Part shown: piece after piece, positions 26,320 through 55,880 of the stretch | Layout: each line of letters starts with the position of its first letter | How positions within the stretch are numbered: the first letter of the stretch is position 1 | The notes under the pieces: generated by a model | Seen by the model: only the letters and a program-made list of their open reading frames with translations | Told to the model about the DNA's origin: nothing | The model's database searches: none | Position numbers and translations under genes: made by a program | Origin: an uncultured Actinomycetota bacterium | GTDB taxonomy: Bacteria > Actinomycetota > Actinomycetes > BP-191 | NCBI GenBank assembly: GCA_963765815.1 | Contig: CAVXXT010000008.1 | Location: 370,666 to 434,665, forward strand | DNA length: 64,000 bases | Direction: 5' to 3'

Positions 26320-26679
26320 GTGCTCCGCCCCTACCTGCCGATCCTCGTCCTCTTCGTGCTCGCGGCCGGCTTCGCCGTGTTCTCCGTGGTCGCCGGTGCG
26401 CTGGTCGGGCCGCGTCGGTACAACCGGGCGAAGTCTGCGGCGTACGAGTCGGGCATCGAGCCCGAGCCGCGCCCCGACGGCATCCGGTTCCCGGTGAAGT
26501 TCTACCTGACCGCGATGCTCTTCATCGTCTTCGACATCGAGATCATCTTCCTCTACCCGTGGGCCGTGGCCTTCGAGCAGCTGGGTGTCTTCGGGCTGGT
26601 CGAGATGGTGCTGTTCATCGGCACGGTGTTCGTCGCCTACGCCTACGTCTGGCGGCGGGGAGGTCTCGAGTGGGACTAG
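26320..26679 (+). CDS. nuoA: NADH-quinone oxidoreductase subunit A
   Basis: AGGAGGA SD, GTG start. Three TMs. YESGIEP...[15 protein letters not shown]. Confidence 0.93.
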
Positions 26680-27173
26680 AGGAGAAGCTGCCGAGCGGCG
26701 TGCTCCTGACGTCGGTCGAGAAGTTCGTCAACTGGTCGCGCCAGTCGTCCCTGTGGCCGGCGACGTTCGGCCTGGCCTGCTGCGCCATCGAGATGATGGC
26801 CACCGGCGCCGGCCGCTACGACATGGCGCGGTTCGGCATGGAGGTCTTCCGCGCCTCGCCGCGCCAGGCCGACCTGATGATCGTCGCGGGCCGGGTCTCG
26901 CAGAAGATGGCGCCGGTGCTGCGCCAGATCTATGACCAGATGCCCGAGCCCAAGTGGGTCATCGCGATGGGCGTCTGCGCCAGCAGCGGCGGCATGTTCA
27001 ACAACTACGCGATCGTCCAGGGCGTCGACCACGTCGTACCCGTGGACATGTACCTCCCCGGCTGCCCGCCGCGGCCGGAGATGCTGCTCGACGCGATCCT
27101 CAAGCTGCACGCCAAGATCGGCCTCGAGCCGCTCGGCGCGCACCGCGACACCGGCGTCGGGACCGCGGTATGA
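26670..27173 (+). CDS. nuoB: NADH-quinone oxidoreductase subunit B
   Basis: GTG 26670 overlaps the nuoA end. N2-cluster motifs [28 protein letters not shown]. Confidence 0.93.

Positions 27174-27765: not shown

Positions 27766-27769
<4 letters not shown>
27170..27769 (+). CDS. nuoC: NADH-quinone oxidoreductase subunit C
   Basis: ATGA overlap. [25 protein letters not shown]...DYPLGG. Confidence 0.92.
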
Positions 27770-29069
<1,300 letters not shown>

Positions 29070-29070
<1 letters not shown>

Positions 29071-39595: not shown

Positions 39596-41130
39596 CCGGC
39601 GCGGCACTGCCCGGCGTGCTGCTGGCGCAGGTCCGGGAGGACATCCCGGCCCCCTCGATCTCCTACCACTCGCTCGGCCCGGTCCTCGTCGTCGCAGGGG
39701 TCGCCCTGCTCGGCGTCCTGATCGAGGCGTTCGCCCCGGCGACCCGGCGCCGAGCGCTGCAGATCCCCGTGGCGCTCGCTGGCCTGCTCGGCGCACTCGT
39801 CCTCATCGCCCGGCTGTGGTCGACGGTGCGCGGTTCGGGCGAGATCGTGGCCGAGGGCGCGATCGCGCTCGACGGGCCGTCGCTGTTCCTGCAGGGCACG
39901 ATCGTGGTGCTCGCGGCGGCGTCGATCCTCCTGCTCGGGGAGCGGGGCGCGGACAGCGACCCCGATGCCGGGCCCGGGCGTGATCTGCCCACCGAGGCTG
40001 TGCCGCTCGCCATGTTCGCAGTGACCGGCATGATGCTGATGACCGCCGCGAGCAACCTGCTGGTGATGTTCGTCGCGCTCGAAGTGCTGTCGCTGCCGCT
40101 CTACCTGCTCTCCGGGCTGGCCCGGCGCAAGCGGGTGCTCAGCCAGGAGAGCGCGGTCAAGTACTTCCTGCTCGGAGCGTTCTCCTCCGCTTTCTTCCTC
40201 TACGGCCTCGCGCTGATCTACGGCTTTGCCGGGTCGGTCGACCTCGCCGACATCGCGACGGCAGCCGGCCGGGTCGACGGCAACCAGGCGTTCCTGTACT
40301 CCGGAGTCGCGCTGCTGTCCGTGGGGCTGCTGTTCAAGGTGGGCGCGGTGCCGTTCCACTCGTGGACCCCGGACGTCTATCAGGGTGCGCCGACCCCGGT
40401 GACCGCGCTGATGGCCTCCGGCACCAAGGTCGCCGCCTTCGGCGCGCTCCTGCGGGTGATGTACGTCGCCTTCGGCCCGCTCCAGTGGGACTGGCGTCCG
40501 GCGATCTGGGGAACCGCGATCCTCACCATGGTCGTCGGGGCGGTGGTCGCGGTCACCCAGCAGGACGTGAAGCGGATGCTCGCCTACTCCTCCGTCGCGC
40601 ATGCCGGGTTCATCCTCACCGGCGTGGCCGCCGCCAACGTCGACGGGCTGCGCGGCGTCATGTTCTACCTGCTCGCCTACGGGTTCACGGTCGTCGGCGC
40701 CTTCGGCATCGTCATGCTGGTCCGCGACGAGCACGGCGAGGCGACCCACCTGTCGCAGTGGCAGGGCCTGGGCAAGCGCTCGCCCCTCGTCGCCGCATCG
40801 TTCGCCACATTCCTGTTCGCGCTCGCCGGCATCCCGCTGACCAGCGGCTTCGTCGCCAAGCTCACCGTCTTCGAGGCCGCGGTCGACGGCCGGGCAACTC
40901 CGCTCGTCGTCGTCGGTGTGGTGACGAGCGCGATCGCGGCGTTCTTCTACGCCCGGGTGGTCGTGCTGATGTTCTTCCAGGAGCCGGCGGCCGACGGTCC
41001 CGAGGTAGTGGTGCCGAGTGGGCTCGCCGCCGCTGCTCTGGGCCTGTCGCTCGCGGTCACCGTCCTGCTCGGCGTGCTGCCCGGTCAGGTGCTCCAGCTG
41101 GTCGGCGAAGCGTCGCTGTTCATCCGATGA
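39592..41130 (+). CDS. nuoN: NADH-quinone oxidoreductase subunit N
   Basis: GTGA overlap. LEVLSLPLYLL, KVGAVPFHSWTPDVYQGAPTPVTALM. Confidence 0.95.
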   Translation: MTGAALPGVLLAQVREDIPAPSISYHSLGPVLVVAGVALLGVLIEAFAPATRRRALQIPVALAGLLGALVLIARLWSTVRGSGEIVAEGAIALDGPSLFLQGTIVVLAAASILLLGERGADSDPDAGPGRDLPTEAVPLAMFAVTGMMLMTAASNLLVMFVALEVLSLPLYLLSGLARRKRVLSQESAVKYFLLGAFSSAFFLYGLALIYGFAGSVDLADIATAAGRVDGNQAFLYSGVALLSVGLLFKVGAVPFHSWTPDVYQGAPTPVTALMASGTKVAAFGALLRVMYVAFGPLQWDWRPAIWGTAILTMVVGAVVAVTQQDVKRMLAYSSVAHAGFILTGVAAANVDGLRGVMFYLLAYGFTVVGAFGIVMLVRDEHGEATHLSQWQGLGKRSPLVAASFATFLFALAGIPLTSGFVAKLTVFEAAVDGRATPLVVVGVVTSAIAAFFYARVVVLMFFQEPAADGPEVVVPSGLAAAALGLSLAVTVLLGVLPGQVLQLVGEASLFIR

Positions 41131-41161
41131 GCGGCGGTCCGGCGATGAGCGGCGTACGGCG

Positions 41162-42154
41162 ATGAGCCCGACCCCGGTGCACGGCATCGTGTTCCACGAC
41201 CCCGAGCTGGAAGCGGCCGTGCGCGCCGGGCTCGACTCGGTCGAGGTGATGCTGCGCGAGTCGGTGAAGAGCGACTACCCGTTCGTCACCGAGACGTCGC
41301 GGCACCTCGTCGACGCGGGGGGCAAGCGGTTCCGTCCGCTGGTGGTCCTGCTCGCGAGCCACTTCGCCGACCCGTCGAGCGCCGCGGTCGTGCCCGCGGC
41401 CGTGGCGATCGAGCTCACCCACCTCTCGACGCTCTACCACGACGACGTCATGGACGAGGCAGTGCTGCGCCGCGGCGCGGTGTCGGCCAACAGCCGGTGG
41501 GACAACACGGTCGCGATCCTCACCGGCGACTTCCTGTTCGCCCGCGCGTCGGAGATCACCGCCGACCTCGGCACCGAGGCCACCCGGATCCTCGCCCAGA
41601 CGATCGCCGTGCTCTGCGAGGGGCAGATCCGCGAGACGGTCGGCGTCGCCGACGGAGCCGACCCGGTCGAGCACTACCTGCAGGTCGTCGCCGAGAAGAC
41701 CGGATCCCTGATCGCGACCTCCGGTCGGCTCGGCGCCCTGCTGTCCGGGGGTGACCCCGCGACGGTCGACGTCCTGAGCCGCTACGGCGCGACGATCGGC
41801 GTCGCTTTCCAGCTCAGCGACGACCTGCTCGACGTCACCAGCGAGTCCGACCAGTCCGGCAAGACGCCCGGCACCGACCTGCGCGAGGGCATCCAGACCC
41901 TGCCGATGCTCTACGCGCTGCGAAGCGACCCGCAGGGACGCCTCGCCGACCTCCTCGCCGGGGACCTGACCGGAGACGCCGAGCATGCCGAGGCGCTGAC
42001 GCTGCTGCGGGCGCACCCGGCGATGGCGGAGGCGCGGGCGACCCTCCTCGGGTACGCCGCCGAGGCCAAGGAGATGGTCGCGGGACTGCCGGAAGGACCC
42101 CCGCGCACCGCCCTCGAGGCGCTCGCGGACTTCGTCGTCGCCCGGACCGGCTGA
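41162..42154 (+). CDS. trans-Polyprenyl diphosphate synthase (menaquinone side-chain, HepS/GrcC-like)
   Basis: Two Asp-rich motifs: LYHDDVMDE and FQLSDDLLD. Start at ATG 41162. Confidence 0.9.
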   Translation: MSPTPVHGIVFHDPELEAAVRAGLDSVEVMLRESVKSDYPFVTETSRHLVDAGGKRFRPLVVLLASHFADPSSAAVVPAAVAIELTHLSTLYHDDVMDEAVLRRGAVSANSRWDNTVAILTGDFLFARASEITADLGTEATRILAQTIAVLCEGQIRETVGVADGADPVEHYLQVVAEKTGSLIATSGRLGALLSGGDPATVDVLSRYGATIGVAFQLSDDLLDVTSESDQSGKTPGTDLREGIQTLPMLYALRSDPQGRLADLLAGDLTGDAEHAEALTLLRAHPAMAEARATLLGYAAEAKEMVAGLPEGPPRTALEALADFVVARTG

Positions 42155-42262: not shown

Positions 42263-42646
42263 ATGAGCAACGACTACTTCGCCGACTACACCACGGTCGG
42301 ATCGGTCATCCTGGCCGGCCTGGCGTTTGTGGTGGTCGCCTTCACGGCGGCCCGGCTCGTGCGCCCGACGCGTCCGCGCCGGGAGAAGTACCTCACTTAC
42401 GAGTGCGGGATCGACCCGGTCGGCGTCGGCTGGTCGCAGACGCAGATCCGCTACTACGTGTTCGCTTTCCTCTTCGTCATCTTCGACGTGGAGTCGGTCT
42501 TCCTGTTCCCGTTCGCGACGGTCCTGCGGACCTTCGACGCGGCGGGCGACGGCATGGCCGTGCTGGTCGAGATGGTGATCTTCATCCTGCTGCTGGCCGT
42601 CGGGATCCTCTACGCCTGGAAGAAGAAGGTTCTCGAATGGGTCTGA
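42263..42646 (+). CDS. nuoA: Second-cluster NuoA paralogue
   Basis: [17 protein letters not shown]...[15 protein letters not shown]. Three TMs. Confidence 0.9.
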
Positions 42647-43140
42647 GCGACCAGGTCGAGGTCCCGCAGCCGATCCGCTTCGTCCTCAACTGGGGGCGCA
42701 AGTACTCGCTGTGGGTGTTCAACTTCGGGCTCGCCTGCTGCGCGATCGAGTTCATCGCGACGTCGATGGCCGAGCACGACTTCATCCGCATGGGGGTGAT
42801 CCCCTTCGCGCACGGCCCCCGGCAGGCCGACCTGATGGTGGTCAGCGGGACCCTGACGGACAAGATGGCGCCGGCCGTCAAGCGGCTCTACGAGCAGATG
42901 CCCGAGCCGAAGTACGTCATCTCGTTCGGCTCGTGCGCCAACTGCGGCGGTCCCTACTGGGACTCCTACTCCGTGGCCAAGGGCGTCGACCAGATCATCC
43001 CGGTCGACGTCTACGTCCCGGGCTGCCCGCCGCGGCCGGAGGCGCTGCTCCAGGGCATCCTCAAGCTGCAGACCAAGATCCAGAACGAGTCGCTCAAGCA
43101 GCGCTACTCGGCCGAGCCGCTGACGGTCGAGGCCGGATGA
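42637..43140 (+). CDS. nuoB: Second-cluster NuoB paralogue (N2 Cys ligands retained)
   Basis: ATG 42637 overlaps the nuoA2 end by 10 nt. [29 protein letters not shown]. Confidence 0.9.
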
Positions 43141-43640
43141 CTCCGGAAGAGCTCATCGGCCGATTCATCGCCGAGCTCGGGGACGACGTCGTCGACACCG
43201 AGGTCGCCTACGACGTCGCCACGGTGACCGTCAACGCCGCGCGCTACGCCGACGCGGCGCGGTTCGCCAAGACCACCCGCGGGCTCGACCTGACCTTCTT
43301 CGACTTCCTCACCGGTGTCGACGAGGGTGAGGCCGGCTACGGCGTGGTGACCCACCTCTACTCGCCGATCCACAAGCACCACATCCAGCTGCGCACCGTC
43401 GTGCCCAACGACGCCCCGAGCCTGCCGACGATGACCGGCGTGTTCCGCGGCGCCAACTGGCACGAGCGAGAGACCTGGGAGATGTTCGGCGTCGTGTTCG
43501 ACGGTCACCCCAATCTCGTCAAGCTGCTGCTCCCCGACGAGTTCGAGGGGCACCCGCTGCGCAAGGAGTTCCTGCTCATGAGCCGCGAGGTCAAGCCGTG
43601 GCCCGGGGCGAAGGAGCCGGGCGAGGGGGGCCACGAGTGA
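43137..43640 (+). CDS. nuoC: Second-cluster NuoC paralogue (short, 167 aa)
   Basis: ATGA overlap. [40 protein letters not shown]. Confidence 0.88.
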
Positions 43641-44635
43641 TCGGCGACGTCCTCGACTCCTATGCGTTCGAGCTCACCCTGCGCATCGTCTGCGTGCTCC
43701 TGGTCTTCCTCACGGTCCCGCTGATCGTCGGTCAGATGGAGCACAAGGCGATGGCGCACATGCAGTCGCGCCTCGGGCCCATGTACGCCGGCGGCTTCCA
43801 CGGCTGGGCGCAGCTCGTCGCGGACGGCGTGAAGTTCCTGCAGAAGGAAGACGTCGTCCCGACCAACGCCGACCCGTGGGTGTTCAAGCTGGCGCCGGCG
43901 GTGTCGCTGCTGCCGCCGATGTTCGTGCTCATCGTGATCCCGGTGGGGCCGGACCTGGTCTCCCAGGATCTCGACATCGGCCTCTTCTACGCGCTCGCGA
44001 TCAGCTCGATCAGCGTCCTCGGCATGCTCATGGCCGCGTGGTCGAGCGCCAACAAGTTCTCTCTGCTCGGCGGCATCCGCGGTGCGGCGCAGCTGATCGC
44101 CTACGAGCTGCCGCTGGTGCTCTGTGCCGCGTCGGCGGTGATGCTCGCGGGGACCATGTCGCTCACCGGCATCGTCGAGGCCTGGGAGTGGTGGTGGCTG
44201 CCGGTCCAGGCGGTCGCGCTGTTCATCTTCTTCACCGCGTCGCTCGCCGAGCTGAACCGCCCGCCGTTCGACATGCCGGTGGCCGACTCCGAGATCATCT
44301 TCGGCCACATGACCGAGTACACCGGGCTGCGATTCGCGCTGTTCCTGCTCACCGAGTACGCCGGCATCGTGGTCGCCGGCGGCCTGATCACGGCGATCTT
44401 CCTCGGCGGCTGGCGCGGCCCGTTCTGGGACTCCGTGCAGATCGGCGACGTCTACCCCCTCGGCATCGCCTACACGCTGGTCAAGGTGCTCGCGATCGCC
44501 TTCGTCGTCATCTGGCTGCGGGTCACCTACCCGCGGCTGCGCGAGGACCAGCTGCAGAAGTTCTGCTGGAAGGCTCTCATCCCCCTCTCCCTCGTCCAGG
44601 TCCTGGTGACCGGCTTCGTCACGGTGGTGAAGTAG
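43637..44635 (+). CDS. nuoH: Second-cluster NuoH paralogue
   Basis: GTGA overlap directly with the nuoC2 stop, leaving no room for nuo[56 protein letters not shown]. Confidence 0.9.
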
Positions 44636-44637
44636 CC

Positions 44638-45447
44638 ATGCCAGGAGGCACCGGCCTGCTGAAGGGCCTCACCGTCACGTTCGGCACGATGCTGAAGCGG
44701 TCGGTCACCAAGCAGTACCCCGACGTCCTGCCCGAGCTGGCGCCGCGCACCCGCGGGGTCATCGCGCTGATGGAGGAGAACTGCACGGTCTGCATGCTGT
44801 GCAGCCGCGAGTGTCCCGACTGGTGCATCTACATCGACTCGCACAAGGAGACGGTGCCGCCGAAGGAGCCCGGCGCGCGGGCGCGCACGCGCAACCTGCT
44901 CGATCGCTTCGCGATCGACTTCGCGCTGTGCATGTACTGCGGCATCTGCATCGAGGTCTGCCCGTTCGACGCGCTGTTCTGGTCCCCGGAGTTCGAGTAC
45001 TCCGAGTACGACATCCGCGAGCTGACCCACGAGATGGACCGCCTGCGCGAGTGGATGTACACCGTTCCCGCGCCGCCCGCGCTCGACCCCGACGGGGAGG
45101 AGCCGGCCGAGGTCGCCGCCGCCGCCAAGGCCGAGCCGACCTTCGTCGAAGCAGTCGGCTTCGCCGGAGCACCGGCGCTCGCCGCGGCACCGGCACCGGC
45201 CGCCCTCCCGGCGGCAGCGCCCGCGCCCGCCCCCGAAGCCGCTGCGACCGACGGCCCTGCTGCTCCCGACGGCTCCGCCGCGGCGGCACCGCCCGCCGTG
45301 GCGGCGGAGCCGGAGCACGATATTGGCGAGGTGCAGGTGGACCAGGCGACGTACGACGAGGCGATCGCGGCCGGCCTGCCCGACCGCGTGGCCCGGGCCA
45401 AGGCGAAGTCGGCCTGGGTGAAGAAGGCCCGGAAGGGGCTGCTGTGA
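44638..45447 (+). CDS. nuoI: Second-cluster NuoI paralogue with ~125-aa C-terminal extension (Ala/Pro linker + Lys/Ala-rich module)
   Basis: [21 protein letters not shown]. Two CxxCxxCxxxCP motifs ([24 protein letters not shown]). Then an Ala/Pro-rich run and a terminal [36 protein letters not shown]. Confidence 0.9.
45340..45435 (+). other. Copy 2 of the shared 32-aa Lys/Ala-rich module ([32 protein letters not shown]) at the C-terminus of NuoI2
   Basis: 27/32 identical to 725..820 (minus strand). Confidence 0.85.
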
Positions 45448-45992
45448 CGACCCTCGCCCAGGCGGCGCCCGGCTACGCCGACGTGACCGCGCAGGAAGTC
45501 ATCTTCGTGCTGATGGGCCTGGTCGCCGTCGGCAGCGCGGTTCTCGTCGTCACGACCAAGAACGTCGTGCACGCAGCGCTGTGGCTCGTCGTGACACTCG
45601 CGTCCGTCGCCGGTGGCTACCTGATGCTCACGGCCGAGTTCCTCGCCTGGGTGCAGGTGCTCATCTACATCGGCTCGATCGTCGTGCTGCTGCTGTTCGG
45701 CATCATGCTGACCAAGGCCCCGATCGGCGGCACGGCGGGACTCGACAGCGAGAACCGCATCGCCGCGGGTGTCGTCGCCACTGCTCTCGGCGCGACCCTC
45801 GTGACCCTCGTCGTCGACGCCTTCCGGCACGCCTACATCGACCTCGAGTCGTTCGAGGTCGGCGGCGCGGAGGCGACCGGCACCGCGATCTTCCGGCACT
45901 ACGTGCTGCCGTTCGAAGTCGTGTCGGTGCTGCTGCTCGCTGCGCTGATCGGGTCCATCGTGCTGTCGCGGCGCGACGAGGGAGGTCGCTGA
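45444..45992 (+). CDS. nuoJ: Second-cluster NuoJ paralogue
   Basis: GTGA overlap. [49 protein letters not shown] ... [25 protein letters not shown]. Confidence 0.9.
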
Positions 45993-45993
45993 C

Positions 45994-46362
45994 GTGCATC
46001 TGGTCTACCCGACGGTGCTCGCCGCGCTGCTGTTCGCGATCGGCGTCTACGGCGTGCTCGCCCGCCGTAACGCTGTCCTCGTCCTGATGTCGATCGAGAT
46101 CATGCTGAACGCCGTCAACATCAACCTGGTCGCCTTCAACGCGTGGCTCCAGGACTCGCTGCTCGGCGGTCAGATCTTCGCGCTGTTCGTGGTCGCTGTC
46201 GCCGCCGCCGAGGTCGGCGTCGGCCTGGCGATCGTGCTGCTGATCTACCGCACCAGCGAGTCGGTCGACATCGACACCCTCAACGAGCTCGGCGACAGCG
46301 CGTCGCCCGAGCGCTCCGCAGCGGCCCGCGCCGCCCTCCCGGCGGAGGCCCGCGTCCGGTGA
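45994..46362 (+). CDS. nuoK: Second-cluster NuoK paralogue with short C-terminal extension
   Basis: LFAIGVYGVLARRNAVLVLMSIEIMLNAVNINLVAF...AAAEVGVGLAIVLL, plus a ~30-aa hydrophilic tail. Confidence 0.9.
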   Translation: MHLVYPTVLAALLFAIGVYGVLARRNAVLVLMSIEIMLNAVNINLVAFNAWLQDSLLGGQIFALFVVAVAAAEVGVGLAIVLLIYRTSESVDIDTLNELGDSASPERSAAARAALPAEARVR

Positions 46363-48416
46363 TCGCCTCCACCATGAGCGTCCTGCTCGCTGCCGGCGAG
46401 GACGTCTCCCACCCCGTGCGGCTCGCCGGCACCGGCTTCCAGGACTACGCCTGGCTGATCCCGGTGTTCCCGCTCGTCGCGTTCGTCGTGATCCTCTTCT
46501 TCGGGAAGCGGATCCCCACCAAGGGTGCCGGCGTCGGCATCGTGGCCATCGCCGGGTCGCTGGTCGTCGCCCTCGGCGTCTTCGCCCAGGCCTACTCGCA
46601 TCCCGGGATGGTCGAGGAGAAGAAGCTCGTCCTGACCCCCTTCGGGGACGGGAACCTGACGCTCGGGATGAAGGTCGACGGCCTGGCCGCGCTGATGTTC
46701 GTGATCGTCTGCCTGGTCTCGCTGCTGGTGCAGGTCTACTCGACGTCGTACATGGACGGCGACAGCCGCTACACGTTCTTCTTCGCGATGCTCAGCCTGT
46801 TCACCACCGGCATGCTGATCGTCACGATCGCGGACAACCTCCTGCTCATGCTGGTGGGCTGGGAGATCATGGGTGTCTGCTCCTACTTCCTGATCGGGCA
46901 CTTCTGGGAGGAGACCCCCAACTCCAACGCCGCGATCAAGGCGTTCCTCACCACCCGCGTCGGCGACGTCGGCTTCATGCTCGGCATCTTCGCCCTGTTC
47001 TGGGGGGCGCACAGCTTCGAGTTCACGACGATCATCGAGCACGCCGAGTCCGGTGAGATGGCCCGCGGCTTCCTGGTCGGCGGCACGGTCCTGATCTTCT
47101 TCGGGGCCGTCGGCAAGAGCGCCCAGTTCCCGCTGCACACCTGGCTGCCTGACGCGATGGCCGGCCCCACTCCGGTCTCGGCGCTCATCCACGCCGCGAC
47201 GATGGTCGCCTCCGGCATCTACATGGTTGCCCGGCTCTACCCGGTCTTCGAGCTCTCCGGCGCCGCCCTCAACCTCATCGGGGTCCTCGCCGCGATCACC
47301 ATGACGATGGCCGCCCTGATCGCTCTCGTGCAGGACGACATCAAGAAGGTGCTGGCCTACTCCACGGTCAGCCAGCTCGCCTACATGACGGCAGGCCTGT
47401 CGGTCGGCGGCTACACCGCGGGCTTCTTCCACCTGTTCACCCACGCCGCGTTCAAGGGCCTGCTGTTCCTCGGCGCCGGGTCGGTGATCCACGCGGTGCA
47501 CAGCAACAACATGAGCGAGATGGGCGGCCTGAGGAAGTTCATGCCGCGCACGCACGCGACCTACCTGATCGGGTGCGTCGCGCTCGCCGGCCTGCCGCCG
47601 CTCGCCGGCTTCTGGAGCAAGGACGAGGTCATCCTCGACGCCTACCACGCGGCCGGGTTCGGTGAGTCCCACGAGCAGCTCGCGACCTCGCCCCTCGTGG
47701 GGAAGCTGGTGCTCGCCTCGGCCCTCCTGACTGCGGTCCTCACGGCGTTCTACGTCACCCGCATGTACTGCCTGACCTGGCTGGGGGAGTACCGCGGCAA
47801 GGGCCACCCGCACGAGTCGCCGGCCGCGATGACGGTGCCGCTGATGGTGCTGGCCGTGCCCGCGGCGCTCGGCGGCCTGTGGGGGAGCGGGTTCTGGCCC
47901 GATGGCCACAACATCCAGCGCGTGGTCGCGTTCGCCGGCCAGGGCTACCACGCCCCGGAGCTGCTGCCGGTCGTCGCGGGCACCTCGATCGCTCTCGCGG
48001 TCATCGGGGTCTTCGTCGGCTACGCGATCTACGGCAAGGGCCTGCCGGCGAAGGACCCGACGCTGAACATGGGCTTCCTCACCACGACGCTCGAGCGACG
48101 GTTCTTCCTCGACGACCTCTACCTCAACGGCATCGTCCGGCCGATGCGCGGCTCGATCGCCAACGCGGCCAACTGGCTCAACCAGAACGTGTTCGACGCC
48201 CCGCCGAACTTCGCCGGCAAGGGCGCCGTCGTCGCCGGGCGAGCGGCGTACGCCGTCGACCAGACGCTCATCGACGGGACGGTCAACGGGTCCGGCCGGC
48301 TCTCCGCGCTGGTCGGCCGGGTGCTCGCTCTCGCCCAGAACGGCAACGTCCAGGCCTACGCGACCGGCATGTTCGTCGGCGTCGTCGCGCTGGCCGTCGC
48401 GGTGGCCGCCCTGTGA
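46359..48416 (+). CDS. nuoL: Second-cluster NuoL paralogue
   Basis: GTGA overlap (alternative ATG 46374). WEIMGVCSYFLIGHFW, KSAQFPLHTWLPDAMAGPTPVSALIHAATMV. C-terminal lateral-helix-like region. Confidence 0.9.
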   Translation: MIASTMSVLLAAGEDVSHPVRLAGTGFQDYAWLIPVFPLVAFVVILFFGKRIPTKGAGVGIVAIAGSLVVALGVFAQAYSHPGMVEEKKLVLTPFGDGNLTLGMKVDGLAALMFVIVCLVSLLVQVYSTSYMDGDSRYTFFFAMLSLFTTGMLIVTIADNLLLMLVGWEIMGVCSYFLIGHFWEETPNSNAAIKAFLTTRVGDVGFMLGIFALFWGAHSFEFTTIIEHAESGEMARGFLVGGTVLIFFGAVGKSAQFPLHTWLPDAMAGPTPVSALIHAATMVASGIYMVARLYPVFELSGAALNLIGVLAAITMTMAALIALVQDDIKKVLAYSTVSQLAYMTAGLSVGGYTAGFFHLFTHAAFKGLLFLGAGSVIHAVHSNNMSEMGGLRKFMPRTHATYLIGCVALAGLPPLAGFWSKDEVILDAYHAAGFGESHEQLATSPLVGKLVLASALLTAVLTAFYVTRMYCLTWLGEYRGKGHPHESPAAMTVPLMVLAVPAALGGLWGSGFWPDGHNIQRVVAFAGQGYHAPELLPVVAGTSIALAVIGVFVGYAIYGKGLPAKDPTLNMGFLTTTLERRFFLDDLYLNGIVRPMRGSIANAANWLNQNVFDAPPNFAGKGAVVAGRAAYAVDQTLIDGTVNGSGRLSALVGRVLALAQNGNVQAYATGMFVGVVALAVAVAAL

Positions 48417-48482
48417 CCGCCATGAGTGCCATCAGCACATGCCCCCGTATGGCCGCGTCAAGACTCGAGAGGGACCGCCGAG

Positions 48483-50033
48483 ATGGATGAGTTCTGGCAC
48501 GACTGGGCGCTGACGCTGTCGGTGCTCGTGCCGCTGCTTGGCGCGATCGTCATCGCGGTCACCCCTGCGGCGCAGGAGCGTGCCGCGAAGGGCCTTGCCG
48601 TCGCCTTCTCGCTCGCGACGTTCCTGGTCACCCTCGGCATCCTCGTGGGCTACGACTACGACTTCGCGTCGAAGAGCAGCGACTACCAGTACGAAGTCGA
48701 CTACCAGTGGATCGACGCGATCAACTCGCGCTTTCACCTCGGCATCGACGGGATCTCGCTGCCGCTGGTCGTCCTGAGCGCGCTGCTCACGTTCCTGTGC
48801 GCGATCTACTCGCTGAAGACCATCCCGAACCCCGGCAAGCCTCGGGCGCTGCTCAGCCTGATGATGCTGCTCGAGGTCGGCATGATCGGCGCCTTCGTGT
48901 CGCTCGACCTGCTGCTGTTCTTCGTGTTCTTCGAGGTCGTCCTCGTCCCGATGTTCTTCATGATCGCGATCTGGGGCGGTCCCAACCGCGCCTACGCCAG
49001 CATCAAGTTCTTCCTGTTCACGCTGTTCGGCTCGGCGTTCCTGCTGCTGTCGTTCCTCGCCCTCTACTTCAAGGCGCCGGCCGGCCAGGAGACGTTCGAC
49101 ATGGTCGAGCTGGCGCGCATGGGCGGGGCTGGCGCCTTCGCGGGTGACTTCGGCCTGATCTGCTTCGCCGGGCTGTTCCTGGGCTTCGCGGTCAAGGTGC
49201 CGATGTGGCCGCTGCACACCTGGCTGCCGGACGCGCACACCGAGGCGCCGACCATCGGGTCGGTCCTGCTGGCCGGCATCCTGCTGAAGTTCGGGACCTA
49301 TGGCTTCGTGCGGATCGCGCTGCCGATCCTGCCCGAGGCGGCACACGACTACGCGCCGTGGATCGCGGTGCTGGCCGCGATCGCGATCGTCTACGGATCG
49401 CTCTGCTGCCTGGCCCAGAAGGAGATGAAGCGGATGATCGCCTTCTCCTCCGTCGGGCACATGGGCTTCGTGATGCTCGGCATCGCGACGATGACCCCCA
49501 CCGGCATCAACGCGGCGCTGTTCGGCAACATCAGCCACGGGGTCGTGACGGGCATGCTGTTCTTCATCGTCGGCTCGGTGAAGGACCGCTACCACACCGG
49601 TGACATCGCCGAGATCGGCGGCGGCATGCTGGTGAAGATGCCCTACCTCGCCTCGCTGCTGACGTTCACCGCCATCGCCTCGCTGGGCCTGCCCGGGCTC
49701 GCCGGCTTCTGGGGAGAGGTGTTCTCGCTGCTCGCCGCGTTCGAGCCGGCCGCGGGCCTCAACGTCGCGCTCTTCCGCACGGTCATGGTGTTCGGCGCCA
49801 TCGGCACCGTGCTGACCGCGGGCTACTTCCTCTGGCTGCTCCAGCGGGTCAACCTCGGCGTCGTCCCGGATCGCTGGCGCACCGAGCGGTTCAGCGACGT
49901 GATGGGCATCGAGCTCGCGGCGTGGACGCCGCTGCTGGTGCTGATCCTCGCGCTCGGCGTGTACCCGAAGTTCATCTTCGGCATCACCGACGGCGCGGTG
50001 CAGCACCTGATGACCTCGATCGGCGTCGGGTAG
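48483..50033 (+). CDS. nuoM: Second-cluster NuoM paralogue
   Basis: Start at ATG 48483 (MDEFWHDW...). FFEVVLVPMFFMIAIWGG, KVPMWPLHTWLPDAHTEAPTIGSVLLAGILLKFG. Confidence 0.9.
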   Translation: MDEFWHDWALTLSVLVPLLGAIVIAVTPAAQERAAKGLAVAFSLATFLVTLGILVGYDYDFASKSSDYQYEVDYQWIDAINSRFHLGIDGISLPLVVLSALLTFLCAIYSLKTIPNPGKPRALLSLMMLLEVGMIGAFVSLDLLLFFVFFEVVLVPMFFMIAIWGGPNRAYASIKFFLFTLFGSAFLLLSFLALYFKAPAGQETFDMVELARMGGAGAFAGDFGLICFAGLFLGFAVKVPMWPLHTWLPDAHTEAPTIGSVLLAGILLKFGTYGFVRIALPILPEAAHDYAPWIAVLAAIAIVYGSLCCLAQKEMKRMIAFSSVGHMGFVMLGIATMTPTGINAALFGNISHGVVTGMLFFIVGSVKDRYHTGDIAEIGGGMLVKMPYLASLLTFTAIASLGLPGLAGFWGEVFSLLAAFEPAAGLNVALFRTVMVFGAIGTVLTAGYFLWLLQRVNLGVVPDRWRTERFSDVMGIELAAWTPLLVLILALGVYPKFIFGITDGAVQHLMTSIGVG

Positions 50034-50037
50034 CCCG

Positions 50038-51528
50038 ATGCTGCAGACCATCGACTACCACGCGATCGCTCCGGAGCTCGTGCTGCTCGGCACGGCCATG
50101 GTGGTGCTGATAGTCGACCTCTTCCTGGCTCCCGAGCGGCGCTGGCTGGCGATGCCGATCTCGTTCGTCGGCGTGCTCGGGTCGCTCGCTGCGGTGATCA
50201 CGATGACCGACGGGCGGGTGCGCGGGACCTTCTGCCTGGACGACGGCAGCTGCTCGTTCGTGGTCGACAACTACGCCGTGCTGTTCAAGGTGATCTTCCT
50301 CGGCGCGGCGCTTGTCGTGCTGCTGCTCTCCCTCAACTACTTCGAGGAGGGTCGCTACTACCAGGGCGAGTACTACTTCCTGCTGCTGTGCTCGTTCTTC
50401 GGCATGCTGCTGATCGCCTCGAGCCGTGACCTGATCATGCTGTTCATCTCCCTCGAGCTGGTCTCGGTGCCCGCCTTCGTCATCGCCGGATTCCGCAAGA
50501 CGGACAGCCGCTCGGCGGAGTCGGCGATCAAGTTCTTCCTGATCGGCGTCCTCGCCACCGCCGTGATGCTCTTCGGCATGAGCCTCGTCTACGGGCTCAC
50601 CGGCTCTCTTCAGCTCGTCACGATCGGCGAGCGCTTCGGCGACGTCGGGCGCACCCCGGCCGGCGCCGCCGCGGTCGGCCTGGTCATCGTCGGCTTCGCC
50701 TTCAAGGTCTCCGCCGCGCCGTTCCACTTCTGGGCCCCGGACACCTACCAGGGTGCGCCGGTGCCGGTCGCCGCGTTCCTCTCGGTCGCCTCGAAGGCGG
50801 CCGGCTTCACCGGGCTGCTGACCGTCTGCTACGTCGGCTTCCCGGCCTACAGCGACGTGTGGGCGCCGCTGCTCGCGATTCTCGCCGCGATCACGATGAC
50901 GCTCGGCAACCTGGTCGCCATCCAGCAGCGGCACATGGTGCGTCTGCTCGCCTACTCGTCGATCGGGCAGGCCGGCTACATCCTGGTGCCGCTCGGCGTC
51001 GCCGCCTCGGCCGGGCCGGCGGCGATGCGCACGGCGTTCGCCGCGACGCTCTCCTACATCGCGATCTACGCCGTGATGAACCTCGGCGTGTTCGCCTGCG
51101 TGACCGCGGTGGCCCGCCGTACGCCGCGGAACATGATCGCCGACTACCGCGGGCTGGTCCGCAGCTCGCCGCTGCTGGCGGTGACGTTCGCGTTCTTCCT
51201 CTTCTGCCTGGCCGGTGCACCGCCCGGCCTGGCTGGTCTCTTCGCCAAGATCCAGGTGTTCCGCGCGACGATCGACGGCGACATCGTCTGGCTGGGCGTC
51301 GTCATGGCGGTCAACACGGTCTTCGCCATGTACTACTACCTCCGCGTCGCGTTCAGCCTCTTCGCCGGTGCGGGCGAGCCGGTGGGGGAGTCCCCGCTCG
51401 AGCCGGTCAGCGTCCCTGCGCCGATCCTGGCCGCGATCGCGATCACCGCACTCGCCGCGATCGCGATCGGCTTCTACCCCGACATCGTGCTGCACTTCAC
51501 CCCGCTGTCGGTGCTCGCCGCCCCCTGA
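50038..51528 (+). CDS. nuoN: Second-cluster NuoN paralogue
   Basis: LELVSVPAFVIAGF, KVSAAPFHFWAPDTYQGAPVPVAAFL. Confidence 0.9.
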   Translation: MLQTIDYHAIAPELVLLGTAMVVLIVDLFLAPERRWLAMPISFVGVLGSLAAVITMTDGRVRGTFCLDDGSCSFVVDNYAVLFKVIFLGAALVVLLLSLNYFEEGRYYQGEYYFLLLCSFFGMLLIASSRDLIMLFISLELVSVPAFVIAGFRKTDSRSAESAIKFFLIGVLATAVMLFGMSLVYGLTGSLQLVTIGERFGDVGRTPAGAAAVGLVIVGFAFKVSAAPFHFWAPDTYQGAPVPVAAFLSVASKAAGFTGLLTVCYVGFPAYSDVWAPLLAILAAITMTLGNLVAIQQRHMVRLLAYSSIGQAGYILVPLGVAASAGPAAMRTAFAATLSYIAIYAVMNLGVFACVTAVARRTPRNMIADYRGLVRSSPLLAVTFAFFLFCLAGAPPGLAGLFAKIQVFRATIDGDIVWLGVVMAVNTVFAMYYYLRVAFSLFAGAGEPVGESPLEPVSVPAPILAAIAITALAAIAIGFYPDIVLHFTPLSVLAAP

Positions 51529-51618: not shown

Positions 51619-52494
51619 ATGGAGAACCACCACAACAACGGCCTCAAGACGGCGATGCTGCTCGGGCTGATGTCCGCGCTGATCCTGGTCGCCGGCGAGC
51701 TGATCGGCGGTCGCGGCGGTCTGCAGACCGCGCTCGTCATCGCGTTCGTGGTCAACGGGATCGGCTACTTCTTCAGCGACAAGATCGCGCTGCGCTCGAT
51801 GCGTGCCGTCCCCGTGAGCGAGGCCGAGGCGCCGGAGCTCTACGCGATCGTCGCCGAGCTGGCCCAGTCGCAGCGGATGCCGATGCCGCGGCTCTACGTC
51901 TCGCCCACCATGCAGCCGAACGCCTTCGCGACCGGCCGCAACCCACGCAACGCGGCCGTCTGCTGCACCCAGGGGATCCTGTCGTTGCTCGACGCCCGCG
52001 AGCTGCGTGGAGTGCTCGGCCACGAGCTGGCACATGTGTACAACCGGGACATCCTGATCAGCTCGGTCGCCGGCGCGCTGGCCACGGTGATCATGTTCCT
52101 GTCGCGGATGGCCTTCTTCGGCGCGATGTTCGGCGGCCGGTCCGACGACGACGAGGGCGGCGGCGCCTTCGGCGCGATCCTGCTGATGATCCTCGGGCCG
52201 ATGGCGGCCGGCATGGTCCAGATGGCGATCTCCCGCCGGCGCGAGTTCGCCGCCGACGCGACGGGCGCCCGAGTGACCGGGGACCCCCTCGCCCTGGCCA
52301 GCGCGCTGCGCAAGCTGCACGCCGGCACGCAGGCGATGCCCCTGCCTCAGGAGCAGTCGCTGATCGCGACCAGCCACCTGATGATCGCCAACCCGTTCCG
52401 CGGTGGTGGCATGGCGAGGATGTTCTCCACCCACCCGCCGATGGAGGAGCGCATCGCCGCCCTCGAAGCGATGTCCGGCACGCACCTCCCGTAG
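51619..52494 (+). CDS. htpX: Zinc metalloprotease HtpX
   Basis: GAGGAGGG SD. Four TMs. HELAHVYNRD zinc motif. C-terminal MFSTHPPMEERIAAL. Confidence 0.92.
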   Translation: MENHHNNGLKTAMLLGLMSALILVAGELIGGRGGLQTALVIAFVVNGIGYFFSDKIALRSMRAVPVSEAEAPELYAIVAELAQSQRMPMPRLYVSPTMQPNAFATGRNPRNAAVCCTQGILSLLDARELRGVLGHELAHVYNRDILISSVAGALATVIMFLSRMAFFGAMFGGRSDDDEGGGAFGAILLMILGPMAAGMVQMAISRRREFAADATGARVTGDPLALASALRKLHAGTQAMPLPQEQSLIATSHLMIANPFRGGGMARMFSTHPPMEERIAALEAMSGTHLP

Positions 52495-52593: not shown

Positions 52594-53085
52594 CTACCGG
52601 TAGTTGGTGAACTGCAGCGGGATCCCGAAGTCGCTTGCCTTGAGCAGCGAGATCACGGCCTGCAGGTCGTCCTTCTTCTTGCCGGTGACGCGCAGCTGGT
52701 CGCCCTGGATCGAGGCCTGGATGCCCTTGGGCCCCTCGGCCTTGATCTTCTTGGCGATCGCCTTGGCCTTGTCATCGGCGATGCCCTGGTTGATCTCGAC
52801 GGTCAGCTTGACCGTGCTCCCGCCGGCCGGCTGCGGGTCGCCGTGCTGGAGGCACTTGAGCGACACATCCCGCTTGATCAGCTTCTCCTTGAAGACCTCT
52901 AGCACCGCCTTGGCCCGCTCGTCGGCGTTGCTCTTGATCTCGACCTTCTCCCCGGCCCACTCGATGGCTGATCCGGTGTCCTTGAAGTCGTACCGCGTGC
53001 CGATCTCCTTCGCCGCCTGGTTCAGCGCGTTGTCGACCTCCTGGCGGTCGACCTTGCTCACGATGTCGAAGGACGGGTCTGCCAT
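52594..53085 (-). CDS. yajQ: YajQ-family (UPF0234) nucleotide / c-di-GMP-binding protein
   Basis: [37 protein letters not shown]...[22 protein letters not shown]. 163 aa, typical family length. Confidence 0.88.
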
Positions 53086-53342: not shown

Positions 53343-55880
53343 GTGCCGGTCGGTGAGCGTCGAGCAGTTCTCGACATCAGCGCAGTCCTCGGGCTGACCG
53401 CGCTCGGCGTCTACGGCGCCGGCGTGGTGGGGCTCGAACCGCTGCCGTCCCCGGTCTCGGTGCCCTGGTGGGTGCTCGCGCTGCTGTTCGCGGCGACCGA
53501 CGCCGCCGCCGTGCACATCGAGGTGCGCCGCGAGGCGCGGACCATCTCGCTGTCCGAGGTCTTCCTCGTCCTCGGGCTCTTCGTCGCCGACCCGGTCCTG
53601 GTCGTCCCCGCGCGCGTGCTGGGTGCGCTGGTGCCGGCGGTCCTGCGTCGGCGGCCGCTGTCCAGCCTGGCGCTCGAGCTGTCTCAGGCGGCGCTGTCGG
53701 CGGGCGTGGCCGTCGTCATGTTCCGCGCCGTCGGGGGCGGCGTAGCGACCGGTCCCCGCGCGTGGGTCGCCGGGGTCGCGGCCGCGTGCGCCGCCGAGCT
53801 GCTCGCCGGCCTGGTGGCGGTCACCACCCGTTTCGACGACGACGAGCAGCCCTGGTGGGTCAACTGGCTGGCGGCCGTCGGCGTGACGCTGACGATCGCG
53901 ACGTTCGAGGGCACGATCGCGCTGGTGTCGGTCGTGACGCTGCAGGCCGACGAGCGGGCTGCGTGGCTGCTCGCCCTGATCGCCGCGGTCATCCTGCTCG
54001 CCTATCGCGGCTACGGGGGGCTGGGGGAGCGGCACGCCAACCTGGAGCGGCTCTACACGTTCAGCCGCGCCGTGGAGGACATCCGCGACGCGAGCGACGC
54101 GACGCAGGCGCTGCTGCTGCACACGCGCGACCTGCTCCGAGCCGCCGGGGCGGAGGTCGCGCTTCGCGACGAGTCCGGCGACGGCAGCTTCCTGCGGGTC
54201 TGGCTCGACGACGACGGCTCGATCAGCAGCTACTACGTCGATGCCGCGGAGGCCGAGGAGTGGCCGTGGCCGGACGTGTGTGCGAGCGGGGAGTCGCGGC
54301 TGGTGCCGCACGGCACCCGTGACCCCGCGGCCCGGGCGCTGCTGACGCGATACGAGGCCCGCGAGCTCTTGATCGCCCCGCTGCTGCGCGACGGCAGCAT
54401 CGCCGGGACGATCGCGGTGACCAGCCGGCGCACCGACCTGCGCACCTTCGGTCGCGAGGACAAGCGCTTCTTCGAGGCGCTCGCGACCCACGCGAGCGTC
54501 GCCCTCGAGAACGAGCGGCTGATCACCCGGCTGCGCCAGGAGGCGATGCAGGACACGCTGACGGGATTGGGCAACCGCACCTACTTCAGGCGGCGCGTGG
54601 CCGACGCGATCGCCGTCGCCAAGGGCCGCGAGCAGCAGCTGGCCGTGATGATCATGGATCTGGACCGGTTCAAGGAGGTCAACGACACCCTGGGCCACCA
54701 CAACGGCGACGTCCTCCTCCAGGAGATCGGCCTACGGCTCACCTCGACGCTCGGTGCGCGGGTGACCATCGCCCGACTCGGCGGCGACGAGTTCGCGCTC
54801 CTCGCGCCGTTCGTGCTCGACGACCTCGATGCGGTGCAGACCGCGAGCCTCGTCCAGGGCGCTCTCGAGCGGCCGTTCGTCATCGACGACCTCAACCTCG
54901 ACGTCTCCGGCAGCGTCGGCGTCGCGATCTACCCGCAGCACGGCGTGGATCCAGAGGCGCTGCTGCAGCGGGCCGACGTCGCGATGTACGCCGCCAAGGC
55001 CGGGACGCGGTCGATCGAGGTCTACGCCAGCGAGCGCGACCAGTACAGCCCGCGCCGGCTCGCGCTGATCGGGGAGCTGCGGCGGGCCATCGAGAGCGAC
55101 GAGCTCATGCTGCACTTCCAGCCGAAGGCGGTGCTGCGCACCGGCGAGGTCATCGGCGTCGAGGCTCTGCTGCGCTGGCAGCACCCGCAGCACGGCCTGC
55201 TCTCGCCGGACGAGTTCGTGCCGCTCGCCGAGCACACCGGGCTGATCCGCGGCCTCACCCAGTGGGTCCTCCGCTCCGCGCTCCAGCAGTGCGCCGCGTG
55301 GCAGCACGCCGGGCTCGACCTGACCGTCGCGGTCAACATCTCGGTCCGCAACCTGCTCGACCCCGACCTGCCGGACGACATCGCGCGTCTGCTCGACCGG
55401 ACCGGGGTCCCGGCCGGGATGCTGGTGCTGGAGATCACCGAGAGCAGCGTCATGGCCGATCCGGCCCGCACGATCGGCGTGCTGCAGCGGCTGGCCGGGA
55501 TGGGCGTCGGCGTCTCCGTCGACGACTTCGGCACCGGCTACTCGTCGCTGTCCTACCTCAGCCGGCTGCCGGTGGACGAGATCAAGATCGACAAGTCCTT
55601 CGTGCAGGGCATGCTGCGCGACCGCAACGACTCGGTCATCGTCGAGACGATCGTCGACCTCGGGGCGAGCCTCGGGCTGCGGGTCGTTGCCGAGGGCGTC
55701 GAGGACGAGGCGACCTGGGACCGGCTGGCCGGGCTCGGATGCGCGGTGGCGCAGGGCTACTTCCTCAGCCGTCCGGTCGCGGCCGCGGCCCTCACCCGGT
55801 GGCTGGGCGAGCGTCCCCCGCCCACCGGCAGCGGCAGCGAAGGTGACACCGGCCCCCGCCGCATCCGCCGGGTCGTGTGA
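53343..55880 (+). CDS. Membrane-anchored GAF-GGDEF-EAL signalling protein (diguanylate cyclase / c-di-GMP phosphodiesterase)
   Basis: N-terminal multi-TM region and a GAF-like segment. GLGNRTYFRRR...RLGGDEFALL (GGDEF). VEALLRWQHP...EITES...DDFGTGYSSLSYL (EAL domain). Confidence 0.9.
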   Translation: MPVGERRAVLDISAVLGLTALGVYGAGVVGLEPLPSPVSVPWWVLALLFAATDAAAVHIEVRREARTISLSEVFLVLGLFVADPVLVVPARVLGALVPAVLRRRPLSSLALELSQAALSAGVAVVMFRAVGGGVATGPRAWVAGVAAACAAELLAGLVAVTTRFDDDEQPWWVNWLAAVGVTLTIATFEGTIALVSVVTLQADERAAWLLALIAAVILLAYRGYGGLGERHANLERLYTFSRAVEDIRDASDATQALLLHTRDLLRAAGAEVALRDESGDGSFLRVWLDDDGSISSYYVDAAEAEEWPWPDVCASGESRLVPHGTRDPAARALLTRYEARELLIAPLLRDGSIAGTIAVTSRRTDLRTFGREDKRFFEALATHASVALENERLITRLRQEAMQDTLTGLGNRTYFRRRVADAIAVAKGREQQLAVMIMDLDRFKEVNDTLGHHNGDVLLQEIGLRLTSTLGARVTIARLGGDEFALLAPFVLDDLDAVQTASLVQGALERPFVIDDLNLDVSGSVGVAIYPQHGVDPEALLQRADVAMYAAKAGTRSIEVYASERDQYSPRRLALIGELRRAIESDELMLHFQPKAVLRTGEVIGVEALLRWQHPQHGLLSPDEFVPLAEHTGLIRGLTQWVLRSALQQCAAWQHAGLDLTVAVNISVRNLLDPDLPDDIARLLDRTGVPAGMLVLEITESSVMADPARTIGVLQRLAGMGVGVSVDDFGTGYSSLSYLSRLPVDEIKIDKSFVQGMLRDRNDSVIVETIVDLGASLGLRVVAEGVEDEATWDRLAGLGCAVAQGYFLSRPVAAAALTRWLGERPPPTGSGSEGDTGPRRIRRVV

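Follow-up and report, generated by a model that had tools for sequence, protein, structure and literature searches.

Gene content of the nuo2 locus

The DNA analysed here is a 64 kb window (the whole stretch; G+C content about 70%) on contig CAVXXT010000008.1 of an uncultured Actinomycetota bacterium. Downstream of a complete canonical nuoA-N operon (nuo1, approximately 26.3-41.1 kb), it encodes a second complex I-like gene cluster, nuo2. Genes were called using a frame plot of G+C content at third codon positions, translations, and Pfam and NCBIfam profile scans. An earlier reading of the letters without database searches (the sequence-only reading) had described ten contiguous complex I-like genes lacking nuoD, nuoE, nuoF and nuoG. 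The frame plot and profile scans bore this out: the plus strand at 42263-51528 carries nuoA2-B2-C2-H2-I2-J2-K2-L2-M2-N2, mostly overlapping, with none of the four absent genes inside the cluster. The locus belongs to the known actinobacterial nuo2 kind and most likely encodes an 11-subunit enzyme whose nuoD2 gene is displaced.

Pfam E-values of the ten subunits ranged from 1e-9 (NuoI2) to 1e-102, those of the other nine starting at 1e-27. NuoA2 (42263-42646; 127 amino acids, aa) matched Oxidored_q4 (E = 3e-33). NuoB2 (42637-43140; 167 aa), the PSST-type carrier of cluster N2, matched Oxidored_q6 and scored above the cut-off of the NCBIfam NuoB subfamily model. NuoC2 (43137-43640; 167 aa) is a short 30-kDa subunit (Complex1_30kDa, E = 2e-36), and NuoH2 (43637-44635; 332 aa) is the ND1-type quinone-channel subunit with an altered loop between transmembrane helices (TM) 5 and 6 (NADHdh, E = 7e-102). 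NuoI2 (44638-45447; 269 aa) has a Fer4 dicluster core for two [4Fe-4S] clusters, an Ala/Pro-rich linker and a Lys/Arg-rich C-terminal motif; its top matches were NCBIfam NuoI models, though it scored under their cut-offs. NuoJ2 (45444-45992; 182 aa) matched Oxidored_q3 (E = 7e-36) and NuoK2 (45994-46362; 122 aa) matched Oxidored_q2 (E = 5e-27); the C-terminal tail of NuoK2 that had been estimated at about 30 aa was confirmed at about 25 aa. The three antiporter-like subunits all matched Proton_antipo_M. They are NuoL2 (46359-48416; 685 aa, with a long C-terminal region; NCBIfam NF005141 NuoL, 590 bits against a cut-off of 556), NuoM2 (48426-50033; 535 aa from the GTG at 48426 or 516 aa from the ATG at 48483; TIGR01972, 546 bits) and NuoN2 (50038-51528; 496 aa; TIGR01770, 366 bits, above cut-off).

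Overlaps of 4-10 bp were found at five junctions (A2/B2, B2/C2, C2/H2, I2/J2 and K2/L2). At 43637-43640 the letters GTGA form both the stop of nuoC2 and the start of nuoH2, a 4-bp overlap that leaves no room for a hidden gene between the two. The same argument had been made from the letters, and both sequence and tblastn searches upheld it.

Integrity of the subunits and selection

The metal ligands noted in the sequence-only reading are present. NuoB2, which is about 60% identical to mitochondrial PSST, keeps all four N2 cysteines including the GCPP motif, and NuoI2 keeps both CxxCxxCxxxCP motifs. The membrane subunits also proved intact, as had been claimed. Both membrane Glu residues are kept in NuoK2 (MSIEIM and AAAEVG), and NuoL2, NuoM2 and NuoN2 retain the Glu of TM5 and the Lys motifs of TM7, TM8 and TM12. 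The motifs present are WE, GKSAQFPLHTWLPDA and HAAFKGLLF in NuoL2, and LE, AFK and ASK in NuoN2; an alignment of NuoM2 with Paracoccus NuoM showed conservation of the TM5 Glu, TM7 Lys and TM8 Lys.

Sequence identity between the nuo2 proteins and their nuo1 paralogues is only 30-54% (33% for NuoA2 and NuoA1); therefore, nuo2 is an ancient paralogue rather than the product of a recent duplication. A metagenomic relative (L001), which is 90-96% identical and has the same layout of nuo1, prenyl synthase and nuo2, served as the reference for ratios of nonsynonymous to synonymous substitution (dN/dS). These were 0.07-0.15 for the nuo2 genes (0.10 for nuoA2), as low as or below those of the nuo1 genes. 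The nuo2 genes are under purifying selection.

Distribution of nuo2 and its eleven-gene relatives

A scan of species-representative genomes with a NuoC2 alignment as query yielded more than 600 matches, of which the best 80 loci were analysed. All of these 80 were from Actinomycetota and included Streptomyces, Actinomadura, Spirillospora, Nonomuraea, Microbispora, Micromonospora, Kribbella, Embleya, and metagenome-assembled genomes (MAGs) of Solirubrobacterales and Mycobacteriales. Among the matches listed, the closest NuoC2 relatives of the window were Mycobacteriales and Frankiaceae MAGs. A tblastn map placed the D-less order A2-B2-C2-H2...N2, usually with an M48 peptidase gene next, in 79 of the 80. 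The peptidase follows nuoN2 in most loci that extend that far, from Nitriliruptorales to Streptomyces; in the window it is an HtpX-like membrane peptidase directly downstream of nuoN2 (51619-52494, plus strand; Peptidase_M48, E = 3e-35).

The Streptomyces cluster has been named nuo2 (SCO4599-4608) and described as lacking the NADH module (N-module) and as transcribed as an operon, with a conserved antisense RNA opposite nuoL2/M2 and a nuoD2 stated to exist and to be encoded separately (PMC3765725, PMC8388888). Its proteins have been detected by proteomics (PMC9739823), and its function was called unclear (PMC9239103). The similar Streptomyces set mentioned in the sequence-only reading does exist, and, in line with that reading, our literature search found no biochemical study of Nuo2 (PMC9239103, PMC3765725). 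Neutral evolution or lack of expression, which that reading had named as grounds for doubt, was not seen: dN/dS is low, and Streptomyces nuo2 is transcribed and translated.

Some variants of the cluster were also noted. In Micromonospora, nuo2 is interrupted by a gap between B2 and C2 with a 461-aa open reading frame (ORF) of no identified function (L044:7452-8837 and other Micromonospora loci). Inserts of 1-9 kb between H2 and I2 occur in many Streptosporangiales loci, that of Spirillospora being a reverse-strand HHH_3 gene. The Spirillospora NuoB2 was called as 397 aa (L002:8811-10004), with a putative N-terminal extension of about 230 aa that had no Pfam match.

Deep-branching relatives retain an eleventh gene. 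In the MAG locus L059, the lone such case among the best 80, a 394-aa NuoD is encoded between C2 and H2. The order A-B-C-D-H-I-J-K-L-M-N followed by the M48 peptidase gene is found in L059, in Egibacteraceae (L083-85), in Nitriliruptorales (L086) and in L096/97, and NuoB2 of the window is 72-79% identical to the homologs in these 11-gene clusters. The Nitriliruptorales locus has the layout of the window, namely nuo1, polyprenyl synthase, nuo2, M48 peptidase and DUF520, except that nuoD2 is present. The window synthase gene (41018-42154, plus strand; polyprenyl_synt, E = 7e-62) lies between nuo1 and nuo2. The order nuo1-synthase-nuo2 is common to the window, L001 and L086, and is the ancestral layout. 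L096/97 is a metagenomic contig of a heliorhodopsin-bearing organism, with a D2-type cluster 1.2 kb from the heliorhodopsin gene (L096:6291-7094). No nuo1 or NuoEFG gene was found within 10 kb of this cluster; therefore, this organism may have no complex I other than Nuo2.

In a neighbour-joining tree of B2, H2 and M2, the D-containing clusters were basal, the window branched next, and the crown group (Streptomyces, Streptosporangiales and Micromonospora) was D-less. L001, L026 and L051 were misplaced in this tree, as their M2 lies off the contig, and were ignored. Because deep-branching relatives keep nuoD2 between C2 and H2, the ancestor had eleven genes. One D-less group was nested beside L059, suggesting that nuoD2 was unlinked at least twice.

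Searches for nuoD and an orphan nuoD2 family

With NuoD1 and NuoD2 queries, tblastn matched a single gene in the 64 kb window, nuoD1 of nuo1 (27766-29070, plus strand; NCBIfam NuoD, 577 bits), the product of which shares 39% identity with NuoD2. The same queries detected no NuoD gene within 10 kb of 81 D-less nuo2 clusters at E ≤ 1. A concealed or decaying copy of nuoD in or around the C2-H2 junction was thereby ruled out in the window and at the 81 loci. The apparent C2-H2 gap of 0.6-1.2 kb in Streptomyces was rejected as a relic of nuoD, being a disordered Ala/Pro/Arg tail of NuoC2. NuoEFG genes were absent from all of about 90 nuo2 loci.

A lone D2-type gene was found in the one complete genome scanned, the 11.85 Mb chromosome of Nonomuraea gerenzanensis from PLSDB. 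NuoD-like sequences occur at exactly two places on this chromosome, as do NuoC-like sequences. Its D-less korBA/nuo2/M48 locus lies at 1.21 Mb and the orphan nuoD2 at 471 kb, about 740 kb apart. The orphan protein is 57% identical to NuoD2 of L059 and about 39% identical to NuoD1. It is 91-99% conserved across the Nonomuraea sequences listed, including strain CA-141351, the D-less cluster of which is L027. Three more divergent orphans (P0357, P0533 and P0351) from metagenomic lineages are 45-50% identical to the Nonomuraea protein, and named D2-type members include Dermatophilaceae and "Actinomycetales" MAGs. The Nonomuraea orphan and these three occupy one slot, with panC/DUF2520 on one side and DUF3180-folK-folB-folP-folE-ftsH-hpt-tilS on the other. 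That such divergent orphans share this slot points to a single ancient relocation, after which the gene stayed in place for a long time. The NuoD2 sequences retrieved included none from Streptomyces, and SCO6560 and SCO3392, considered as possible nuoD2 locus tags, gave no match in the literature search.

Orphan and in-cluster NuoD2 share an NRHDW plus HRGxE signature. NuoD2 is of a short type, without the insertion of about 41 aa seen in NuoD1, its best NCBIfam model being NF008974 with 366 positions, and it keeps His38 (HPxxHG). The sequence-only reading had proposed a module without a NuoD of its own. Its observation that D is absent from the cluster stands, but a dedicated NuoD2 family, the kind of finding which that reading had named as counter-evidence, exists in relatives, either inside the cluster or as an orphan.

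The arginine beside cluster N2 and the quinone site

An arginine beside cluster N2 is supplied either by NuoD, in the motif HRGxE where it is dimethylated by NDUFAF7, or, in Thermus thermophilus, by R83 of Nqo6 with Thr in Nqo4; its mutation in Yarrowia destroyed N2 and abolished quinone reductase activity (PMC8042128). The window nuo1 has the second arrangement, with Arg in NuoB1 (26670-27173, plus strand) aligned with Nqo6 R83 and Thr in NuoD1 (HTGIEK). NuoB2 of the window has Thr at the R83 position, as do all 85 NuoB2 sequences compared, and every NuoD2, in a cluster or orphan, has the HRGxE Arg. Pairing NuoB2 with NuoD1 would place Thr at both positions and leave no Arg at N2; therefore, NuoB2 predicts NuoD2 and not NuoD1 as its partner. 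This disfavours the borrowing of NuoD1 from the first operon, one of the options raised in the sequence-only reading.

Genes of the PF02636 family (Methyltransf_28, NDUFAF7/MidA) occur near nuoD2 (L087:6646-7647, L088:3371-4450, L094:2188-3123 and L096:18385-19338), both beside orphan nuoD2 and inside one 11-gene cluster. As the HRGxE Arg is the NDUFAF7 target in mitochondria, this proximity suggests that NuoD2 may be Arg-methylated. No copy matching the NDUFAF7-like methyltransferase profile was found in the window or near any D-less nuo2 cluster.

The quinone site is also modified. At the position of T. thermophilus Nqo4 Y87, a strictly conserved ligand of the quinone head group (PMC8119997), NuoD2 has Trp in 236 of 236 scorable sequences (116 of 116 L059-like and 120 of 120 orphan-like). 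The residue is Tyr in NuoD1 (RMDYLS), M. smegmatis NuoD, NdhH and the NuoD of the Bacillus 11-subunit complex. In NuoH2, the TM5-6 loop reads PFDMP(V/I)A(D/E)SE compared with the canonical PFDLPEAE(S/T)E, and Val or Ile replaces Glu in nearly all of about 80 sequences. As far as could be found, the NuoD2 Trp and NuoH2 Val/Ile features are undescribed in the literature and look new. The loop signature is alike in D-containing and D-less clusters. That the H2, C2 and B2 signatures are unchanged in D-less clusters argues that the partner stayed the same after the gene moved.

Electron donor and the tails of NuoI2 and NuoC2

Genes for a 2-oxoacid:ferredoxin oxidoreductase (korAB) are found upstream of nuo2, in divergent orientation, at about 45 of the 80 loci. 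These come from Streptomyces, Streptosporangiales, Embleya and some Mycobacteriales MAGs (e.g. L002:1962-4875 and L095:6107-8984). Sometimes a HisKA_3/GerE two-component system stands between korAB and nuo2. No nuo2 locus encoded FpoF or hydrogenase subunits. Because korAB so often adjoins nuo2, and by analogy with 11-subunit enzymes that use ferredoxin, we tentatively favour ferredoxin as the electron donor.

The C-terminal tail of NuoI2 in the window (45070-45447) is about 125 aa long and had no Pfam match. It ends in the motif ~DQ(E/A)TYD..(L/I)A.G...RVA...AKAAA followed by K/R-rich residues. The motif is common to the window and all basal nuo2 clusters (L059, L083, L086, L004, L013, L016, L026, L029, L030, L051 and L068). 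In Streptomyces and Streptosporangiales it is lost, and a short EEPKE(I/L)AAARKAAEK tail stands in its place. Basic tails similar to that of NuoI2 are found on some NuoC2 proteins. A C-terminal motif of NuoC2 is invariant in 13 diverse aligned members; the D-containing L059 has KEWEGREEPG there. It was dropped as a marker of D-less clusters, as Egibacteraceae carry both the motif and NuoD2. In Streptomyces (L071:9900-11314) and Micromonospora (L044:9992-11053), NuoC2 extends into a disordered Ala/Pro/Arg/Ser-rich tail of 200-300 aa, which starts after this family motif and PPGVP..WGP; NuoC2 of the window stops right past the first motif.

Proposed model of Nuo2

Taken together, the ten genes probably encode Nuo2 of Actinomycetota, an 11-subunit complex I-like redox-driven proton pump without the NADH module, with NuoD2 displaced. 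Seven of the ten products (A, H, J, K, L, M and N) would form the membrane arm, and the other three (B, C and I) would be connecting subunits, of which the complete enzyme has four. NuoD2 would be the eleventh subunit, its ancestral place being between C2 and H2, from which it would have moved to the panC-folK housekeeping slot in most Actinomycetes. Reduced ferredoxin, for example from KorAB, might dock on the basic tails of NuoI2 and NuoC2. Electrons would then pass through N6a and N6b of NuoI2 and N2 on NuoB2 to menaquinone, in a putatively non-canonical pocket of B2, D2 and H2 with Trp for the head-group Tyr and Val/Ile for the loop Glu. Menaquinone reduction would drive proton pumping via NuoL2, NuoM2 and NuoN2. 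We infer that a quinone is the acceptor of Nuo2.

A dedicated NuoD2 is expected in the window genome because of the covariation of NuoB2 Thr with NuoD2 Arg and because NuoD2 is found in relatives. It is likely that the organism encodes NuoD2 outside the window.

Several points weigh against this model. The 64 kb of this genome that form the window hold no nuoD2, and nuoD1 lies only 13 kb upstream of nuo2, which would make sharing easy. The window lineage stands between the basal and crown groups and unlinking seems to have occurred at least twice, so that the Nonomuraea case need not apply. Streptomyces nuoD2 was reported as an annotation only, in two papers (PMC3765725, PMC8388888). Some orphan NuoD2 proteins are very divergent, being 28-36% identical to NuoD1 with altered GPQ motifs, and the Trp in place of Tyr might reflect an acceptor other than a quinone. 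As for ferredoxin, the window lacks korAB, the proximity of korAB to nuo2 at other loci could reflect ancestral gene order and not a functional link, and no ferredoxin-binding subunit was identified in nuo2.

Comparison with known systems

The closest described system is Streptomyces nuo2 (SCO4599-SCO4608), which has its ten genes in the order seen here, C2 immediately preceding H2, no NuoEFG, and the downstream M48 peptidase. The family signature (H2 loop PFDMP[VI]A[DE]SE, C2 motif and B2 Thr) is found in both. However, Streptomyces nuo2 follows korAB and a two-component system, whereas that of the window follows nuo1 and the prenyl synthase. The long basic tail of NuoI2, an ancestral feature lost in Streptomyces, persists in the window, and the window NuoC2 lacks the disordered tail of 250-300 aa found in Streptomyces. 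The 11-gene clusters (L086, L083, L059 and L096) have orthologous subunits and share the NuoI2 tail motif with the window, but keep nuoD2 where the window has the 4-bp C2/H2 overlap. The window encodes ten core subunits of a putative 11-subunit enzyme in cis, with intact N2, N6a and N6b ligands and antiporter Lys/Glu residues and no NuoE, NuoF or NuoG, the NuoD homologue being known from relatives only.

The nuoABCDHIJKLMN operon of the Bacillus cereus group likewise lacks NuoEFG, and its short-type NuoD is 47% identical to NuoD2. It differs in having the canonical Tyr (DRMDYLS), a canonical NuoH loop and the D gene inside the operon. Bacillus thuringiensis NuoC (L089:7842-8993) has an N-terminal Lys/Ala-rich repeat extension of about 220 aa (AAAAKAKAAALAKQKREG...), similar in composition to the basic tails of NuoI2 and NuoC2. 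The ferredoxin-dependent NDH-1 of cyanobacteria and chloroplasts and the Fpo-like complex of Methanosaeta are, like Nuo2, 11-subunit cores without the NADH module, and the ferredoxin donor and basic docking tail proposed for Nuo2 would be analogous. FpoI of the Methanosaeta complex has a lysine-rich tail. NuoH2 scored best against NdhA. However, NdhS-, NdhO- and NdhV-type subunits are absent from Nuo2, NdhH keeps the Tyr, and scores against Ndh models were far below their cut-offs.

Canonical 14-subunit Nuo (window nuo1, M. smegmatis and T. thermophilus) has homologous subunits with the same Fe-S ligands and antiporter motifs. Nuo2 differs in its 30-54% identity, its unlinked D, its swapped B/D Arg arrangement and its lack of E, F and G, which in the window are encoded only in nuo1. 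No large subunit of group 4 [NiFe] hydrogenases (Mbh, Mbx/MBS, Ech and Hyc) is encoded in the cluster; NuoB2 scored 187 bits against PSST compared with 103 for MbhJ and 90 for HycG, and NuoD2 355 bits against Nqo4 compared with 145 for MbhL. The F420H2 dehydrogenase Fpo differs as well, since nuo2 has no FpoF and scores were 242 for FpoH (cut-off 475) and 395 for FpoL (cut-off 1050). Lastly, NuoL2, NuoM2 and NuoN2 scored above NuoL/M/N cut-offs and far below those of Mrp antiporters, and the Fe-S subunits NuoB2 and NuoI2 are present.

Alternative explanations

In the main alternative, Nuo2 with NuoD2 would dock the NuoEFG of nuo1, forming a second NADH:menaquinone oxidoreductase with another pumping and quinone module. 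The adjacency of nuo1 and nuo2 in the window and basal lineages is in line with such sharing. We consider it unlikely, since in most Actinomycetes nuo2 lies far from nuo1 and beside korAB, the cluster of L096/97 may be the only complex I there, with no NuoEFG within 10 kb, and the basic tails of NuoI2 and NuoC2 may replace surfaces expected under NuoG.

If the window organism had no NuoD of its own for nuo2, Nuo2 might recruit NuoD1 and form an alternative isoform of complex I with a hybrid quinone module. Hybrid assembly of nuo2 and nuo1 products has been suggested for Streptomyces (PMC9239103, PMC3765725), nuoD1 is the only nuoD of the window and lies on the same strand, and several basal D-less clusters directly follow nuo1. 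However, a B2-D1 pair would lack the second-sphere Arg of N2, the loss of which abolished N2 and activity in Yarrowia. The nuo2 subunits are also only distantly related to those of nuo1, the H2, C2 and B2 signatures persist after loss of the linked nuoD2, and a dedicated NuoD2 is kept under strong constraint where whole genomes were inspected. This makes the hybrid distinctly improbable.

A machine of ten subunits without any NuoD homologue, either an ion translocator whose Fe-S stub is vestigial or has taken on a new role, or a complex with an unrelated substitute for D, has a very slim chance. It would agree with the absence of a D gene within 10 kb of the 81 D-less clusters, and lineage-specific extensions of NuoC2 and NuoI2 could in principle fill the space. 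However, the N2 ligands are invariant, the Arg missing from NuoB2 is supplied only by a D2-type partner, and nuoD2 co-occurs with a D-less cluster in N. gerenzanensis, the one complete genome scanned. We know of no role for NuoC in established structures beyond clasping NuoD, which also counts against such a machine. For the window lineage itself, there is little probability that a NuoD2 gene is missing and that the module runs with no NuoD-type subunit or with some unrelated protein in its stead; if true, this would be the first complex I relative without the [NiFe]-large-subunit fold. That nuo2 is a non-functional leftover of a duplicated operon is practically negligible as an explanation: four of the 14 canonical genes are missing, but all ORFs are intact and translationally coupled with dN/dS of 0.07-0.15, and the cluster is conserved in at least 80 Actinomycetota genomes and expressed in Streptomyces. 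An 11-subunit Nuo2 with a displaced NuoD2 remains our preferred explanation.

Neighbouring genes

Beyond the M48 peptidase, the window encodes a DUF520/YajQ protein (52594-53085, minus strand) and a GAF-GGDEF-EAL protein (53343-55880, plus strand). Since yajQ also follows the peptidase gene in Nitriliruptorales L086, the downstream synteny is old. Scanning 40.9-53.4 kb for promoters and terminators gave no useful information. At the start of the window, a minus-strand ORF (890-1702) encodes a membrane protein that, judged by its translation alone, looks cytochrome b-like. It adjoins another minus-strand ORF (about 1742-2080) for a ferredoxin-like protein with two [4Fe-4S] motifs and a KKKK tail, which was a weak tblastn match of NuoI2.

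Implications

Nuo2 occurs in soil Actinomycetes, including antibiotic producers, and is expressed; a displaced NuoD removes the false puzzle of a complex I relative without this subunit. For genome mining, the locus is a warning: when complex I of Actinomycetota is called "incomplete" on the basis of its operon, a subunit gene located hundreds of kilobases away goes unnoticed. The features of NuoD2 and NuoH2 raise the question of what Trp in place of the quinone Tyr, and a hydrophobic residue in place of the Glu of the ND1 loop, do in complex I. They are joined by the question of whether Nuo2 is a ferredoxin:menaquinone proton pump linked to KorAB.

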